Assembly (NCBI GenBank): GCA_938004065.1
Contig: CALKWM010000038.1
Span: 2,466-66,465 of the forward strand
Source: an uncultured bacterium
GTDB taxonomy: Bacteria; Patescibacteriota; JAHJAL01
Length of the DNA stretch: 64,000 nt
Direction of reading: 5' to 3'
Positions within the stretch are counted from its first letter, which is position 1. Each line of letters begins with the position of its first letter. The notes beneath the pieces are model-generated. The model had not been told where the DNA came from. It did not search any database and saw only the letters and a program-made list of their open reading frames with translations. The translations under genes were made by a program, and so were the position numbers. Shown piece after piece: positions 15,444-44,640 of the stretch.

Positions 15444-17393
15444 TTGTTTATAATAAGGGTTATGAATAAAAATAAAGCAAAAACTTTTTGCATCATCACT
15501 TTCGGGTGTGCCATGAATTATAGCGACTCGGACCGAATCGAGGCAGTATTGAAGGAAAACGGTTTGGTTCCGACCAAAAAAGATATTGAGGCCGATTTAG
15601 TGATTATCAATAGTTGCAGTGTCCGGCAAATGGCGGAGGATAGAACATATGGCAAAATCAGTAAATTGGCCAAGTTGAAAAAAAGACCCAAAATAATAGC
15701 CACCGGTTGCTTGGTGTCGGACAAGATTTGGAAAAAATTGTTGGACAAAAACAAATTTGATTTGTGTTTGCCGATTGACCGGATGATTGAACTGCCGAAA
15801 TATCTGGCGGAATGGGGACTGAATTGTCATCCCGAACACGAAAGCGAGTCATCGAGCGTTTCGAGCGATTCGGGATCCCAGAAGAAAATTACCAATTACC
15901 AATTACCAATTACCAATAAAATTCCAAATTCCAAATTCCAAATTCCAAACGAAACATATCTGTCGTCCTCGAGTCGAATGAGTGAAGCGAATATCGACAT
16001 CGGGGATCCAGAAAATAAATCTAAAGTATCAAGTAATAAGTATCAAGGATCAAGTTTGGTGTCCCTCGAACCCGAAGGGTCCACATTGGGACAACTCGGG
16101 ACGATAAATAATGAGATCCTGAATGGCTCGAATAGCCCTGCGGGCTTTCGGGTTCAGGATGACACCAAAAAATACAAGCATTATCTCGACATTGTGCCGA
16201 AGGGGAAACAGACTTTTACGGCGTATATCCCAATCATGACCGGGTGCAATAATTTTTGTTCATATTGTGCGGTGCCATACACTAGAGGCCGCGAAGTTTC
16301 GCGGCCGATGGCGGATGTAATCAACGAAGCCAAGATATTGGCGGAAAATGGGTGTATCGACTTAACTTTGTTGGGGCAGAATGTGAACTCATATAAGTGT
16401 CATCCTGAACTCGGAAGCGAGTCATCGAGCGCTTCGAGCGATTCAGGATCCCAGAAGAAAATTACCAATTACCAATTACCAATTACCAATAAAATTCCAA
16501 ATTCCAAATTCCAAATTCCAAACGAAACATATTTGTCATCCTCGAGTCGAATGAGTGAAGCGGATATCGACAACGGGGATCCAGAAAATAAATATCAAAT
16601 CTCGAATAAATCGCATGGATCCCCGATCCTGCATCCGGGCATTCGCCGGACAGGTTCGCTGGACAAGTTAGCGAAGCGCCCGCCTAAACTAGGAGGGGGA
16701 AGTGAATTAAATAACTCTTTTGTGGAATTATTGCGAAGAGTATCGGATATTAAAGAATTAAAAAGAATATTTTTTATTTCCTCGCATCCGAAAGATATGT
16801 CGGAGGAGTTGATTAGTTTGGTGGCTAGTCGTGATAATTTGTGTAATTACATCCATTTGCCGGTACAGGCGGGAGATAATGAAATTTTAAAAAAGATGAA
16901 CCGGCATTACACACGTGAGCAATATCTTGATCTGGTGGCAATGATTAGAAATACTATTCCCAATGTTAGTTTGACGACAGATCTGATCGTTGGCTTTCCG
17001 GGCGAAAGCGAAAAACAATTTGAGCAATCAGTTGATTTATTCCGACGATGTAAATTTGATATGGCTTTTATCGCCGAGTATTCACCGCGACCCAAAACAG
17101 CCGCTGCTAATTTGAAAGATAATGTCCCCAAAGCGGAAAAACATAGACGAAAGAAGTTTTTAAATGACGAGGTGTTAGCAGTATCTGCACTTGAAAATAA
17201 CAAAAAACTGGAAGGCAAAATTATACCGGTTTTAATATCTCGAGCGAATAAAAATGGATTGATTGGGTTGACTGAAGGGTTAAAACAAGTGCATATCAAA
17301 GGGGATAAAAAAATGATCGGGCAGATTTTGCCGATCAAGATTGTTAAAGCAATGAAGTGGGCGCTGGAGGGAAGAGTTATCAATCATCGATAA
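15444..17393 (+). CDS. miaB: tRNA-i6A37 methylthiotransferase MiaB carrying two in-frame blocks of palindromic repeat-element insertions
   Basis: MTTase N-domain (FCIITFGCAMNYSDS), radical-SAM CNNFCSYCAV and a C-terminal TRAM-like region. 649 aa against ~440-450 expected. Extra ~200 aa map to 15825-16165 and 16398-16700 and consist of copies of the hairpin repeats found intergenically. Confidence 0.85.
   Translation: MFIIRVMNKNKAKTFCIITFGCAMNYSDSDRIEAVLKENGLVPTKKDIEADLVIINSCSVRQMAEDRTYGKISKLAKLKKRPKIIATGCLVSDKIWKKLLDKNKFDLCLPIDRMIELPKYLAEWGLNCHPEHESESSSVSSDSGSQKKITNYQLPITNKIPNSKFQIPNETYLSSSSRMSEANIDIGDPENKSKVSSNKYQGSSLVSLEPEGSTLGQLGTINNEILNGSNSPAGFRVQDDTKKYKHYLDIVPKGKQTFTAYIPIMTGCNNFCSYCAVPYTRGREVSRPMADVINEAKILAENGCIDLTLLGQNVNSYKCHPELGSESSSASSDSGSQKKITNYQLPITNKIPNSKFQIPNETYLSSSSRMSEADIDNGDPENKYQISNKSHGSPILHPGIRRTGSLDKLAKRPPKLGGGSELNNSFVELLRRVSDIKELKRIFFISSHPKDMSEELISLVASRDNLCNYIHLPVQAGDNEILKKMNRHYTREQYLDLVAMIRNTIPNVSLTTDLIVGFPGESEKQFEQSVDLFRRCKFDMAFIAEYSPRPKTAAANLKDNVPKAEKHRRKKFLNDEVLAVSALENNKKLEGKIIPVLISRANKNGLIGLTEGLKQVHIKGDKKMIGQILPIKIVKAMKWALEGRVINHR
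15825..16165. repeat. insertion block 1 in miaB: hairpin element TGTCATCCCGAAC..GATTCGGGATCC, heptamer repeats (ATTACCA)x3-(ATTCCAA)x4, element TGTCGTCCTCGAG..GGGGATCCA, element GTGTCCCTCGAACC..CTCGGGACGA, element GAGATCCTGAAT..GGGTTCAGGATGACA
   Basis: Seen in sequence. Same families occur in intergenic DNA (e.g. 21529, 24647, 19336). Confidence 0.8.
16398..16700. repeat. insertion block 2 in miaB: near-duplicate of block 1 (TGTCATCCTGAAC..GATTCAGGATCC, heptamers, TGTCATCCTCGAG..GGGGATCCA, GGATCCCCGATCC..GCGAAGCGCCCGCC)
   Basis: Encodes CHPELGSESSSASSDSGSQKKITNYQLPITNKIPNSKFQIPNETYLSSSSRMSEADIDNGDPENK, almost identical to the block-1 peptide. Confidence 0.8.
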
Positions 17394-18002: not shown

Positions 18003-18062
18003 AAATACACAACCACCCCATCCGCCCAGGGCGGATTGCCCCTCCTTCAAAAGGAGGGGAGT
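18003..18062. repeat. GC-rich palindromic repeat CACCCC..CCGCCCAGGGCGGA..CCCCTCCTTCAAAAGGAGGGG
   Basis: Homologous to the first element of the in-frame insertion in trmD (27117-27175). Confidence 0.6.
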
Positions 18063-18114: not shown

Positions 18115-19296
18115 ATGACAAGAAATAATTCTAAAAAAGTGAAGTTGGTGTGTATCGGGGGGCCGACAGCTTCGGGGAAAACCGAAGCATCTTTAGTATT
18201 GGCGGAAAAATTTGATGGAGCGATAATTTCCTGTGATTCGAGGCAGATTTACAAAGAGCTGGATGTTTCGACTGATAAAATACCATACTCTCTCCCCTAT
18301 CATGACCCGATTTTATATCGTGGTATAGAACATTATGGAATAAATGTCGCTGAGATTGATAAGCCATTCACATTGTTTGATTGGATGACATATTGCCGAG
18401 GAGCGATTGCCAAAATCGTAAATTCAGGGAAAATTCCATTTCTAGTGGGCGGGACCGGATTATACATTCAGTCAATTATTGAAAATTATAAATTGAAACA
18501 GGATTTTGATGCTGAGTTGAGAGAAGAATTGAATAAAATGTCATTGAAACAATTGCAGACGAGATTGAAAGAATTAAATCCTGATTTGTATGAAAAGATT
18601 GATGTTAATAATCCGCGGAGGGTGGTGAGAGGGATAGAAAGAGCCATTCTGTCATCCTCGAGTCGGAAGCCCGAAGGGCGATCAGACATCGGGGATCCAG
18701 AAAATAAATCTCAAATATCAAATATCAAATATCAAGCAAAAAAAACACATGGATCCCCGATAGCGAAGCGCCCGCCGAGTCGGTGGACTTTCGATTCGAG
18801 GATGACAAAAGAGAGTATCGTAAATCATTCTAAATCCCTGCACGAAGCGGATGGTAATGATGAAAACAATGAGATCCTGAATCGCTCGGAAACTCATCCG
18901 ATAAAAAATCGGATTCGTATCCGGGTTCAGGATGACAAAATAAAAAAATTTGACAGTCTGGTATTGTCATTTAATCCAGAGCGAGAGTTGATTAGACAAC
19001 GGATCGAGAATCGTGTCAAAAAACACCAAGAAATCGGAGTAATTGATGAGGTGAAAAGATTGGTAGAAAAATATGGGGCTGACAATCAGATCTTGAATTC
19101 TACTATTAGTGTGCAGGAATACATTCCATATGTTTTGGGAAAAATTTCATTGGAAAAAGCGCAAGAAAGGGTTGTTATAAATAATTATCAGTATGCCAAA
19201 AGGCAGATGACCTGGTTTAAGAAGTATGGAAATACGGTATTTGTCGATAGTGTAAAGGAGATGGAGAGAGAGATTGTTAAATGGATAAATGGATAA
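18115..19296 (+). CDS. miaA: tRNA dimethylallyltransferase MiaA with an in-frame ~96-aa insertion made of three hairpin repeat elements
   Basis: P-loop GGPTASGKTE, DSRQIYKELD, LVGGTGLY motifs. 393 aa against ~300 expected. Insertion 18650-18937. Confidence 0.85.
   Translation: MTRNNSKKVKLVCIGGPTASGKTEASLVLAEKFDGAIISCDSRQIYKELDVSTDKIPYSLPYHDPILYRGIEHYGINVAEIDKPFTLFDWMTYCRGAIAKIVNSGKIPFLVGGTGLYIQSIIENYKLKQDFDAELREELNKMSLKQLQTRLKELNPDLYEKIDVNNPRRVVRGIERAILSSSSRKPEGRSDIGDPENKSQISNIKYQAKKTHGSPIAKRPPSRWTFDSRMTKESIVNHSKSLHEADGNDENNEILNRSETHPIKNRIRIRVQDDKIKKFDSLVLSFNPERELIRQRIENRVKKHQEIGVIDEVKRLVEKYGADNQILNSTISVQEYIPYVLGKISLEKAQERVVINNYQYAKRQMTWFKKYGNTVFVDSVKEMEREIVKWING
18650..18937. repeat. insertion block in miaA: TGTCATCCTCGAG..GGGGATCCA; ATATCAA heptamer x3; GGATCCCCGA..GAGGATGACA; GAGATCCTGAAT..GGGTTCAGGATGACA
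   Basis: Seen in sequence. Translated in the same frame (LSSSSR...DIGDPENK) as the copies in miaB. Confidence 0.8.
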
Positions 19297-19569
19297 AAAA
19301 TTAACATATCAAACTTAGCAATTAACAAACTTAAGAAGTTTCAAGACTCAAGTATCAAGGATCAAGTATTGGTGTCCCTCGACAAGCTCGGGACGATATT
19401 TATTCAAAGCTATAAAAAGGAAAACAATCTCAAGGTTTTTACGGAAGTTTTAATGTTTGGATGGTAAAATGGGATAAGTTATAAGTAAAAAGTAATAAGT
19501 AAAAAATTAGCACAAATATAAGTTTTGGAAAGTTTGTAATTGTTTGAAAAGTTTGATTAAGTTTGTCCC

Positions 19570-21525: not shown

Positions 21526-21528
21526 TTT

Positions 21529-21981
21529 TGTCATCCTGAACCCGAATCCGCTCAGAGCGGATATCGAGCTATTCAGGATCTTGCAACTCATCACTTAGAA
21601 ACTTGGCAATACAAATCGTTCCAAGAAGAATTATTTCTCTCTATTAGTTTGACTTTTCAGGATATATTCCAGTCTTTTTAGTATTTTTTCTTTTCCAATG
21701 GCATCGTCAATATCATCAAACATCTCAAAATAAACGAGTTGATCAATATTGTATTTGGATGCAAAACATTTTATAATCCTATTTTTATGTGCCCAAACTC
21801 TACCCTTTAAATAATTTTTGACTCCAATATACAAAATCCCTTTTGCTCTATTTGCTAGAATATAAACATAATAATCATTTTTCATAATCTGATTTTTTCA
21901 ATTTAGAGAATAATTTAATATTAAGAGATCCTGAATTGCTCGATGTGCTCATAAAAATTCGCTTTCGGGTTCAGGATGACA
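21529..21981. mobile_element. GIY-YIG cassette: hairpin element (21529-21580, TGTCATCCTGAA..ATTCAGGATC), GIY-YIG ORF, inverted hairpin element (21925-21981, GAGATCCTGAAT..GGGTTCAGGATGACA)
   Basis: Outer ends are perfect inverted repeats TGTCATCCTGAAC / GTTCAGGATGACA. Second copy with the same architecture at 26029-26466. Confidence 0.6.
21631..21885 (-). CDS. GIY-YIG nuclease superfamily protein (YhbQ/URI-like)
   Basis: YYVYILANRAKGILYIGVKNYLKGRVWAHKN matches the GIY-(10-11)-YIG pattern of small URI-domain nucleases. Confidence 0.75.
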   Translation of the reverse strand: MKNDYYVYILANRAKGILYIGVKNYLKGRVWAHKNRIIKCFASKYNIDQLVYFEMFDDIDDAIGKEKILKRLEYILKSQTNREK

Positions 21982-21995
21982 CCAAGGATTAATAC

Positions 21996-25994: not shown

Positions 25995-26028
25995 CAATGT
26001 CAAATTGCGAGTAAATTTGTCATCCTGA

Positions 26029-26466
26029 ACCCGAAAGGTCCGTCTTCGGACCGCTTCGAGTGATTCAGGATCCCTCCAATTACCAGAATTGAATATCATT
26101 ATACAAATCATTCCAATTCGGATTTTCTTTTTCTATCAATTTTATTTTCCAACTTCTTTTCCAATCTTTTAACTTTTTTTCTCTGTATATTGCTTCATTG
26201 ATATCCTCAAATATTTCATAGTACACTATTTTATCAATATTATATTTTGATGTGAATCCTCTGATGATTTTGTTCTTATGTTCCCATACTCGACCCTTTA
26301 AAACACTTGTAACGCCAATATACAAACTAGCTCGTTTTTTGTTTGTTAAAATGTAGACATAATAAATATTTTTCATAATTATATTATCTAACTTAGTAAT
26401 TAAATATATATTAAGAGATCCTGAATTGCTTGAAGCGCCCTTCGGGCTTTCAGGTTCAGGATGACA
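26029..26466. mobile_element. second GIY-YIG cassette: hairpin element (26029-26085), GIY-YIG ORF, inverted hairpin element (26415-26466)
   Basis: Same architecture and flanks (..atattaagagatcctgaattgct..) as 21529-21981. An extra solo right end ..GCAAGTTCAGGATGACA at 26518-26534. Confidence 0.6.
26080..26376 (-). CDS. GIY-YIG nuclease superfamily protein (paralog of 21631-21885)
   Basis: YYVYILTNKKRASLYIGVTSVLKGRVWEHKN. Confidence 0.75.
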   Translation of the reverse strand: MKNIYYVYILTNKKRASLYIGVTSVLKGRVWEHKNKIIRGFTSKYNIDKIVYYEIFEDINEAIYREKKLKDWKRSWKIKLIEKENPNWNDLYNDIQFW

Positions 26467-26565
26467 CTTTTTCTTTAATTTTGATCAAATTTGATAATTT
26501 CCGCCCATGGTGGCTTGCAAGTTCAGGATGACATAATTAGTTTGACATTTGCTAAGTATAATTAA

Positions 26566-27519
26566 ATGAAAATAGACATTATTACCCTATTTCCCGAGAT
26601 GTTTGCTGGTGTATTTGAGGCCAGTATTATCGGACGTGCCAGGGAAAAGGGCTTGATAGAGATAAATTTGCATAATCTCAGGGACTGGGCAGTCGATAAA
26701 CACAAAACCGTTGATGACACGCCTTATGGCGGAGGCGCGGGGATGGTGATCAAGGTGGAGGTGATGGACCGATGCCTGACAGACATAATTCAAAAATCAA
26801 AAATCAAAAATCAAAAAGGACAGGTTACAAACCTGTCCCTACAACGGATATTAATGACACCGCAGGGAAGGACATTTGATCAGAAAAAGGCGAGGGAGAT
26901 GGCGAAATTGGACCAAATCGTTTTGATCTGCGGGCATTACGAAGGATTTGATCAAAGAATTCATGAAAATTTGGTGGACGAGGAATTATCGATCGGAGAT
27001 TTTGTCCTGACCGGTGGAGAGATTCCGGCGATGGCGGTAGTAGATGCGGTAGCTCGACTGGTGCCGGGGGTGATCAAAGAAGAGTCACATATGAATGAGA
27101 GTTTTTCGGTGGTACCTGATAACCACCCCGCCACGCCTCATCGGCGGGAGCCCCTCCTTGAAAAGGAGGGGTGTAAAAAGAAGGAGAAAAGTGATGGATC
27201 CCCCCACCACACCGCCACGCCTTCGCTCATAAAAAGGGAGCTTCGGCGAGCTGCTCCTACTCGAACAGGGGGGAACTACCACCACCCCGAATCGGTCTGC
27301 GACCTTTCTACCCTTCCACTGGTCCACCCCAAAAATTGTTTCACAATTTCTGGGGACCCCGGGGCAGGAGGGGAATATAGACAAGATTTGTATCTAGAAT
27401 ATCCGCATTATACAAAACCGGCGGAATACAAAGGGTGGAAAGTGCCGGAGGTGCTAATGTCCGGCAATCACGCCGAGATTGAAAAATGGAGACAAAAAAA
27501 TATCAAAAAGAAGCCATGA
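26566..27519 (+). CDS. trmD: tRNA (guanine37-N1)-methyltransferase TrmD with two in-frame repeat insertions
   Basis: MKIDIITLFPEMF, GGGAGMV, LICGHYEGFDQR, LTGGEIPAMAVVDAV, SGNHAEIEKWR motifs. 317 aa against ~230-250 expected. Insertions at 26790-26850 and ~27115-27375. Confidence 0.85.
   Translation: MKIDIITLFPEMFAGVFEASIIGRAREKGLIEINLHNLRDWAVDKHKTVDDTPYGGGAGMVIKVEVMDRCLTDIIQKSKIKNQKGQVTNLSLQRILMTPQGRTFDQKKAREMAKLDQIVLICGHYEGFDQRIHENLVDEELSIGDFVLTGGEIPAMAVVDAVARLVPGVIKEESHMNESFSVVPDNHPATPHRREPLLEKEGCKKKEKSDGSPHHTATPSLIKRELRRAAPTRTGGNYHHPESVCDLSTLPLVHPKNCFTISGDPGAGGEYRQDLYLEYPHYTKPAEYKGWKVPEVLMSGNHAEIEKWRQKNIKKKP
26790..26850. repeat. in-frame insertion 1 in trmD: (AAAATCA)x3 heptamers + REP palindrome GGACAGGTTACAAACCTGTCCCTAC
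   Basis: Palindrome family also found intergenically at 6895, 42166 and 43118. Confidence 0.7.
27115..27375. repeat. in-frame GC-rich insertion 2 in trmD (CACCCCGCCACGCC..GCCCCTCCTTGAAAAGGAGGGG.. and further GC-rich palindromic units)
   Basis: Strong local GC shift inside a low-GC gene. First unit homologous to the intergenic element at 18003-18062. Sits between conserved ...EESFS and LEYPHYTKP... segments of TrmD. Confidence 0.65.
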
Positions 27520-44187: not shown

Positions 44188-44270
44188 GGTTTTTTGATAA
44201 TAATTTTACGGATCTATCTCCCCGCCCTTTGGGCAATTCAGAATGTTCAGTTATTCAAACCACCTTCATT

Positions 44271-44640
44271 TCTCAGGATGACAGAGATCCTGAATCGCTC
44301 GAGCGCTCGTATAACTCGCCTCGGGTTCAGGATGACATTGTAATTTGTTTGGAATTTGATTAGACAAGGATGGGTGGAACAACGTAGAACTCCTTCCATT
44401 TCTTAAGATGACAGAGATCCTGAATCGCTCGAGTGCTAGTATAACTCGCCTCGGGTTCAGGATGACATTGTGATTTGTTTGGAATTTGATTAGACAAGGA
44501 TGGGTGGAACAACGTAGAACTCCTTCCATTTCTTAAGATGACAGAGATCCTGAATCGCTCGAGTGCTCGTATAACTCGCCTCGGGTTCAGGATGACATTG
44601 TGATTTGTTTTCCGCCCAAGGCGGACCAGTCATAAACTGG
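44271..44640. repeat. tandem array, ~2.8 copies of a 130-bp unit (hairpin element GAGATCCTGAATCGCTCGAG..GGGTTCAGGATGACA + 73-bp spacer)
   Basis: Unit starts at 44284, 44414 and 44544. Spacers are identical between units. Confidence 0.8.

Follow-up and report, generated by a model that had tools for sequence, protein, structure and literature searches.

The Rickettsia palindromic elements (RPEs), reportedly described by Ogata et al. in 2000, are small palindromes that lie in frame within conserved housekeeping genes of a small-genome bacterium. Intergenic mosaic repeat arrays are known as Neisseria intergenic mosaic elements (NIME) and, in enterobacteria, as bacterial interspersed mosaic elements (BIME). 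Here we describe a related arrangement in a 64,000-nucleotide stretch of contig CALKWM010000038.1 (positions 2,466 to 66,465; hereafter the window) from an uncultured Patescibacteria-like bacterium, in which the tRNA-modification gene miaB carries two clusters of hairpin repeats inside its coding sequence. These clusters are probably transcribed and translated as disordered surface loops, leaving the core of the enzyme intact.

The CGTC-tagged repetitive extragenic palindromic (REP) sequences share an unpaired C/TGTC head, an 8-9-bp stem starting with AT, a loop of 4-5 nt and a tail close to CCA (PMC3733652). Neisseria dRS3/NTS belong to their CGTC/TGTC superfamily, as do Rickettsia RPE-4 and RPE-6, and the superfamily is reported to have intragenic units and no transposase; Di Nocera et al. 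2013 also noted families with other loop lengths, and the largest REP-encoded protein regions reported were 43-82 aa (PMC3733652). The Ssn proteins, about 94 aa in length, belong to the GIY-YIG enzymes; they bind the NTS/SRM hairpins that flank them and cleave adjacent single-stranded DNA. Chenal et al. 2025 pointed out the insertion sequence (IS)-like NTS-ssnA-NTS architecture, and intragenic copies and Patescibacteria are absent from the discussion in that paper (PMC11893778). Intragenic miniature transposable elements with inverted repeats (MITEs), namely ERIC, BOX and cyanobacterial families, also make in-frame fusions (PMC10969869).

The miaB open reading frame (ORF), its two insert blocks and the repeat units within them are listed below. 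Hairpin units are named by type (A, B or C).

15462 (ATG; upstream TTG at 15444) to 17393, plus strand: miaB ORF, 643 aa from the ATG and 649 aa from the TTG
15825 to 16165, plus strand: insert block 1, about 113 extra residues in the linker between the methylthiotransferase (MTTase) N-domain and the radical S-adenosylmethionine (SAM) core
15825 to 15879, plus strand: hairpin A1 (TGTCATCCCGAAC...GATTCGGGATCCC), head on the left, reads CHPE...DSGS, -17 kcal/mol
15887 to 15949, plus strand: block 1 heptamers (AATTACC)4.4 and (AAATTCC)4.4, perfect, unstructured as RNA (0 kcal/mol)
15961 to 16010, plus strand: hairpin B1 (TGTCGTCCTCGAG...GGGGATCCA), one head substitution, -18.1 kcal/mol
16059 to 16104, plus strand: hairpin C (GTGTCCCTCGA...CTCGGGACGA), loop larger than in the intergenic copy at about 19366-19392
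16113 to 16165, minus strand (inverted): hairpin A2 (GAGATCCTGAAT...GTTCAGGATGACAC), reads ILN...VQDD, -26.3 kcal/mol, z = -4.99
16398 to 16708, plus strand: insert block 2, about 105 extra residues after strand beta-2 (GQNVNSY) of the radical-SAM core
16398 to 16452, plus strand: hairpin A3, five differences from A1
16460 to 16522, plus strand: block 2 heptamers, the same two tracts as in block 1, located with Tandem Repeats Finder (TRF)
16534 to 16583, plus strand: hairpin B2 (TGTCATCCTCGAG...GGGGATCCA), located by fold and alignment
16614 to 16707, minus strand (inverted): hairpin B3, tail and interior conserved, head decayed, -35.6 kcal/mol

Gene calls in public databases start miaB at the ATG and give a product of 643 aa. 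This product scored 379.8 bits with the MiaB equivalog model TIGR01574 (cutoff 355.3), the match being broken into three stretches, and contained the Pfam domains UPF0004, Radical_SAM (split) and TRAM. Together with the three N-domain cysteines and the CxxxCxxC motif, the equivalog score and the three-domain architecture place it in MiaB. Residues C52, C83, C262, C266 and C269 were invariant in 100 homologues, C16 was invariant in the 10 closest, and the homologue alignment showed that the Cys triads for both Fe-S clusters and the conserved motifs are retained. The nearest known orthologue lies on a contig designated L002 and shares 88% amino-acid identity over the core. Over 422 core codons compared with L002, the nonsynonymous rate (dN) was 0.081, the synonymous rate (dS) 1.06 and dN/dS 0.077, which indicates strong purifying selection on the core. 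The first-pass annotation had called miaB essential; both E. coli and Salmonella are viable as miaB mutants, and MiaB is non-essential in model bacteria.

The surplus amounts to about 215 codons (647 nt), so that repeat DNA makes up about one third of the ORF, and L002 contigs do break within these hairpins. We nevertheless give almost no credence to miaB being a decaying pseudogene or to the inserts being an assembly artefact at repeats. In addition to the low core dN/dS and the retention of all catalytic cysteines and conserved motifs, the identical MiaB protein is recorded on 4-5 contigs in NCBI/ENA, and an independent ENA assembly has 1 difference in 7932 positions (99.987% identity over 7.9 kb). 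The open frame of the inserts, discussed below, also argues against decay.

Both blocks were placed by orthologue alignment in linkers of naturally variable length, and the coordinates and the loop or linker positions first proposed (15825-16165 and 16398-16700) were right, the former to within a few bases. Among 99 aligned homologues, the linker after the N-domain helix has a median length of 16 residues and reaches at most 66, compared with 125 here; for the linker after GQNVNSY the median is 12 residues and the longest 43, compared with 108 here. On the solved B. uniformis MiaB, the insertion sites correspond to residues ~130-146 and 223-231. DNA homology with L002 ends at 15824|15825 and restarts at 16157 for block 1, and ends at 16393|16394 and restarts at 16709 for block 2, where L002 has 39 nt. 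The right junction of A2 (GATGACACCAA) is also present in L002. Unrelated REP-like inserts occur at the same two sites in four other Patescibacteria MiaB proteins, and on this comparison both linkers are generally permissive.

Seven hairpin units were counted, one more than the first-pass annotation gave: block 1 holds A+, B+, C and A-, and block 2 holds A+, B+ and a B- whose head has decayed. Their proposed derivation from intergenic hairpins plus heptamers held, as the same elements occur at about 12 intergenic sites, mostly within 40 nt of ORF ends, while miaB and miaA together hold 9-10 copies. A direct repeat is common to both blocks (15822-16036 and 16395-16609; 215 nt, 93% identity). 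Its two copies differ at 16 of 215 positions, distributed 4/6/6 over the three codon positions, and the encoded peptides differ at 9 of 70 residues, so the insert peptide looks unconstrained in its amino acids. The heptamer tracts are perfect in both blocks by TRF, and the 80-nt microsatellite spacer shows zero differences between copies. Examples of the encoded peptides are FQIPNETYLSSSSR and MSEANIDIGDPENK.

The frame of the host gene contained no stop codon in either miaB block, whereas every one of the other five frames held 3-9. The insert block of the miaA gene was likewise open in the host frame only (2-9 stops in the other frames of the miaB and miaA blocks taken together). Where these repeats form composites between genes (three cases, 229-348 nt), all six frames had at least 2 stops. 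From base composition, the ln P of an open frame was -6.6 for one miaB block and -5.9 for the other, or about e^-12.5 over 215 codons, of the same order as the e^-10 estimated earlier.

Frame usage provided a second line of evidence. Among 133 A-type copies, the forward frame reading CHPE.. was open in 74% and hydrophilic (grand average of hydropathy, GRAVY, -0.75), and the forward frame reading VILN.. was open in 68% and hydrophobic (GRAVY +0.48). All seven intragenic forward copies (two here and five in other genomes, among the matches listed) used the hydrophilic frame. Their hosts elsewhere were glycosyltransferase-like, methyltransferase-like, MurT-like and HypF-like ORFs and one unassigned ORF. 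All eight intragenic reverse copies (two here and six in other genomes, among the matches listed) read ILN...VQDD, in ORFs elsewhere resembling cysteine desulfurase, DnaX, UppP, LeuRS, a membrane protein and a flavobacterial ORF; in the last, the hairpin copy may precede the true start. The names of these other hairpin-bearing ORFs are a reading of their translations only. Since both forward frames are similarly open but only the hydrophilic one is used inside genes, frame usage argues that the insert peptide is exposed to selection. Among these genomes, nine loci with in-frame hairpins in long ORFs were noted, mostly from Patescibacteria.

The AlphaFold model, built with 100 homologues, gave a predicted local distance difference test (pLDDT) score above 90 for 328 core residues, and the core superimposed on MiaB 7mjz with a template modelling (TM) score of 0.85, normalised to the target. 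Residues 137-230 and 321-414, which lie in the two inserts, had pLDDT below 50 and were unstructured. The model thus predicts the inserts as disordered loops on an intact MiaB fold. Translation and tolerance in the manner of RPEs, which the first-pass annotation had also put forward, is most likely the right explanation on the sequence evidence and is the best supported; the hairpins appear to belong to the same REP superfamily as RPE-4 and RPE-6.

Comparison with L002 informed the history of the inserts. At site 1, L002 carries its own 155-nt mosaic, in which heptamers are combined with a TGTCATCCCGGA hairpin and another hairpin in inverted orientation. This insert is open in the host frame only, and it shares both junctions with the window while its interior differs. 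The first hairpin of the miaA insert sits at the same codon in the miaA of L002, with the visible 27 of 27 nt identical and 67-74% identity in the flanking coding DNA. A site-1 insert and a miaA insert thus predate the species split and have stayed in frame, and they are old enough for selection to have acted. Block 2 is absent from L002, and the module copies within miaB differ at 7% of sites, compared with a proportion of synonymous differences (pS) of 0.57 between the miaB genes. On both counts block 2 is younger than the site-1 insert, in keeping with the recent copy-paste event suggested previously. Colonisation of site 1 came before the lineage parted from its nearest known relative, with turnover of its content since then; block 2 probably arose later as a copy of the left 215-230 nt of block 1, or vice versa. 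It was also observed that both ends of the 8-kb L002 contig (positions 1-64 and 8029-8055) lie within B-type hairpins. As assemblies of these genomes from short reads break at the hairpins, intragenic copies are probably under-reported in metagenome-assembled genomes.

The repeats themselves raise the question of a gained function, in which the inserts serve as disordered arms for partner or tRNA binding, or the heptamers act as a phase-variation switch of the synthesis of 2-methylthio-N6-isopentenyladenosine at tRNA position 37 (ms2i6A37). Four perfect period-7 tracts lie in one ORF, where a one-unit slip shifts the frame, and L002 has a (CAAAAAT)3 tract at site 2. The spacer is identical between copies while the hairpins differ, and MiaB, MiaA and TrmD all bear inserts of about 100 aa. 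We regard such a function as unlikely. The insert peptide shows no amino-acid constraint, the interior of site 1 was replaced between lineages, the independent assembly has tracts of identical length, and four to five units are short for efficient slippage. Moreover, the module was found in no other protein cluster: when 1.84 billion representatives were searched exhaustively with HMMER for the block-1 peptide, only the MiaB protein itself and unrelated repetitive proteins came back, although short REP peptides are below the reach of HMMER. The composite module would accordingly be private to this lineage. A word-indexed protein search with the same peptide yielded 2 candidates, neither of which scored, the peptide probably being too low in complexity.

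Folding of block 1 as RNA gave -106 kcal/mol (z = -4.46) with the outer A arms paired, and this structure bears on whether the inserts reach the protein. They could be removed or skipped before that point by RNA excision via the closing stem, for instance through RNase III-type cleavage and ligation, by ribosomal bypassing or by protein splicing; the first-pass annotation had allowed for removal at the RNA or protein level. The inverted A arms close the whole of block 1, both blocks start with Cys, block 2 ends in ..NN|S, and the hairpin structure is conserved through compensatory changes. We consider removal highly improbable all the same. Rfam gave no match at gathering score anywhere in the window, nor any at E<=1 within 15700-16800. 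No Hint/intein domain was found with Pfam, and the inserts are predicted to be disordered. The leading Cys is the TGT of the TGTCAT head, which is found in every forward in-gene copy, and block 2 lacks a closing stem (z = -1.6). An excised or bypassed insert would also need no stop-free host frame, no kept phase and no preference for the hydrophilic frame. An intein was rejected separately: in addition to the missing Hint fold, block 1 ends in ..QDD|T and block 2 in ..LNN|S, compared with the required His-Asn followed by Cys/Ser/Thr. ARAGORN gave no match. Equally slim are the chances of the specific routes by which the clusters may bypass the protein, namely stem-directed mRNA excision with re-ligation or ribosomal bypass, where some similar device might close block 2, or, in a milder form, a MiaB switch driven by heptamer slippage.

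Several observations count against translated, tolerated passengers. In the mRNA, block 1 can be closed by a stem of about 55 bp, which could be an RNase III target or have a role at the RNA level. Of the five differences between A1 and A3, four make up two compensatory pairs (15833/15872 and 15841/15859), and the miaA hairpin is fully identical across lineages where its flanks have diverged. Such conservation of the hairpins goes beyond what a purely passive model predicts. Block 2 exits at the C-terminal end of beta-2, after GQNVNSY, on the catalytic face of the barrel, where a loop of 105 residues could interfere with MiaB function. Translation, moreover, is inferred from sequence evolution and a structure model. 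Z-scores for single-hairpin folds were mostly weak (-0.7 to -1.8), and since dinucleotide shuffles of short GC-rich sequence fold too, fold energy alone is no proof of structure. We infer that hairpin uniformity is kept by gene conversion, by template-switch repair in quasi-palindromes or by the recognition needs of Ssn, and we do not think that a function in miaB expression is its cause.

The hairpins form a family that extends well beyond miaB. The words GTCATCC/GGATGAC occur 29 times in the window, compared with 5 expected, and about 21 of these sites are hairpins. Type A has a TGTC head, the stem ATCCTGAA...TTCAGGAT and then C(C/T)N, and its copies end in GGATC followed by CC, TC or TT. 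Type B has a TGTC head, the stem ATCCTCGA...TCGGGGAT with one G-T pair and a CCA tail, its copies ending in GGGGATCCA. Type C begins with GTGTCCCTCGA (GTGTC head). A scan of genomes, one per species, for TGTCATCCTGAAC-N20-45-ATTCAGGATC returned at least 116 stretches spanning Patescibacteria, Bacteroidota, Proteobacteria, Spirochaetota, Thermotogota, Armatimonadota, Campylobacterota and others. Other genomes commonly have a minimal form, TGTCATCCTGAACTTGATTCAGGATC, whose loop is about 5 nt.

With their tetranucleotide head, AT-start stem, tail and dispersed multicopy distribution, the window hairpins most likely fall in the CGTC/TGTC-tagged REP superfamily. They depart from it in loop length, with 20-45 nt and an inner stem between the outer stem halves. 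The link to RPEs rests on the assignment of RPE-4 and RPE-6 to the CGTC-4 and CGTC-1 REPs, respectively (PMC3733652; review PMC10969869).

Many genomes have the head and left arm (TGTCATCCTGAAC and a further 7-10 nt) in 1-3 tandem "stuttered" copies ahead of a full hairpin, which suggests a repeated partial-copy process on the head side. Within the window, three tandem units of about 130 nt lie at 44263-44610, between NUDIX and sugar-transferase genes, each made up of a complete A hairpin in inverted orientation, a spacer and a head that is truncated (CTGTCATCTTAAGAAATG).

Hairpins of this family also flank two small GIY-YIG genes of the window.

21528 to 21985, minus strand: Ssn-like unit 1, an 84-aa GIY-YIG ORF (21631-21885) between inverted A hairpins with heads outward
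26017 to 26468, minus strand: Ssn-like unit 2, a 98-aa GIY-YIG ORF (26080-26376) between inverted A hairpins with heads outward

Both units are about 455 bp long, and each ORF encodes a single GIY-YIG domain (PF01541); NCBIfam and PDB sequence searches with these ORFs gave no match. The hairpin-flanked arrangement was present in all seven GIY-YIG homologues met among loci selected by the hairpin pattern. For an unbiased test, 80 metagenome loci were chosen by GIY-YIG protein similarity alone. Of 74 loci, 61 had a forward hairpin no more than 150 nt upstream, and 71 of 80 had a reverse hairpin downstream, with hairpins on both sides in 61 of the 74 loci having enough flank. In control windows at least 535 nt away, the counts were 2/113 and 1/113 (~1-2%). 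The GIY-YIG units of the window thus fit the published Ssn/SRM architecture. The idea that hairpin-flanked GIY-YIG genes represent a new "REPtron" for CGTC REPs was rejected, as the Ssn family is already published (PMC11893778).

The published SRM string, HGTCWYN(0-2)YYVSBRHN(0-5)WNVSBRGN(0-2)RNCYNB, matches canonical NTS. It gave 0 matches in the window and matched at 24 of the 80 GIY-YIG loci. A structure-based rule (GTCA, 8-nt stem, loop, stem complement) found hairpins at 82-89% of flanks. As the string misses hairpins found by the structure rule, the ATCCTGAA, ATGCTGAA and ATTCCGGA stem classes are under-counted by it. The hairpins probably spread as single-stranded DNA hairpins handled by Ssn-type GIY-YIG nucleases, which are encoded twice nearby. 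In a gene under purifying selection, a copy would survive only if it is in frame, free of stops and encodes a hydrophilic, flexible peptide.

Two further genes for enzymes acting at tRNA position 37 carry inserts in the window, so that all three such enzymes encoded there (MiaB, MiaA and TrmD) have inserts of about 100 aa.

About 18640 to 18940 (ORF 18115-19296), plus strand: miaA insert of about 100 aa with B+, B- and A- hairpins, open in the host frame only
26566 to 27519: TrmD (tRNA 1-methylguanosine-37, m1G37, methyltransferase), 317 aa long, of which about 100 aa are an in-frame insert at about 27110-27390, 54% GC in the insert

MiaA is 393 aa long in the window and acts just before MiaB in the same tRNA-A37 pathway. 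One strain variant of MiaA differs at one residue, located in the insert. Part of the TrmD insert (27121-27174; CCCCTCCTT..AAGGAGGGG) matches an intergenic palindrome at 18011-18062, and this palindrome represents a second palindromic-element family, apart from the miaB hairpins.

Among the closest described systems, RPEs resemble the miaB inserts, which lie in frame in a conserved ORF at surface-exposed positions. The resemblance extends to loop or linker sites, hydrophilic peptides, genes hit twice, clusters and a head-stem-tail design. Unlike RPEs, the inserts occur in a Patescibacteria-like host, use the stems ATCCTGAA and ATCCTCGA, have 20-45-nt inner loops with a second stem, form clusters of 105-113 aa each (compared with 43-82 aa) and include heptamer microsatellites in the mosaic. 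The unpaired (C/T)GTC head, the 8-bp AT-start stem, the short tail and the many dispersed copies are shared with Neisseria dRS3/NTS-SRM, and the single-domain GIY-YIG genes of 84-98 aa between inverted copies with the Ssn system; in contrast to published SRM, no window hairpin fits the degenerate string.

Alternating hairpin orientation, the admixture of other short repeats and composite blocks of 150-350 nt recall NIME and BIME, whereas the miaB mosaic is intragenic and kept open. Like MITEs, the hairpins are non-autonomous repeats tolerated in coding sequence; MITEs, however, have true terminal inverted repeats and target-site duplications linked to IS transposases, and neither such a duplication nor an IS relative is evident for the hairpins. 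Like inteins, introns of group I/II and elements bypassed in translation (T4 gene 60 and the mitochondrial "byps"), the miaB inserts are foreign DNA that interrupts a conserved gene without destroying it, but they hold an open host frame and bear no intein or intron signature. The phenomenon is already known from Rickettsia, and the miaB inserts are an extreme case of it. Novelty lies in the host lineage and in the load (seven hairpins plus microsatellites, ~215 codons), together with the recurrent use of two permissive MiaB sites across lineages and an argument for translation drawn purely from the DNA.

Taken as translated inserts, the miaB repeats mean that an Fe-S radical-SAM enzyme apparently carries repeat-derived disordered sequence as about one third of its length, with one insert immediately following a conserved strand of the active site. 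In-frame REP/RPE "decoration" would thereby be extended from Rickettsia and a few Proteobacteria to Patescibacteria-like small-genome bacteria, and intragenic copies would be tied to the recently described Ssn/SRM system, whose published string leaves undetected a large hairpin variant with ATCCTGAA stems that spans phyla. The comparison of hydrophilic and hydrophobic frame usage is a test of translation that may be usable elsewhere. Excision or bypass at the mRNA level, if true, would give bacteria an undescribed way of neutralising REP insertions within coding sequence. In practical terms, inserts of this kind should be expected in proteins of the candidate phyla radiation by those who run annotation pipelines and structure predictors.

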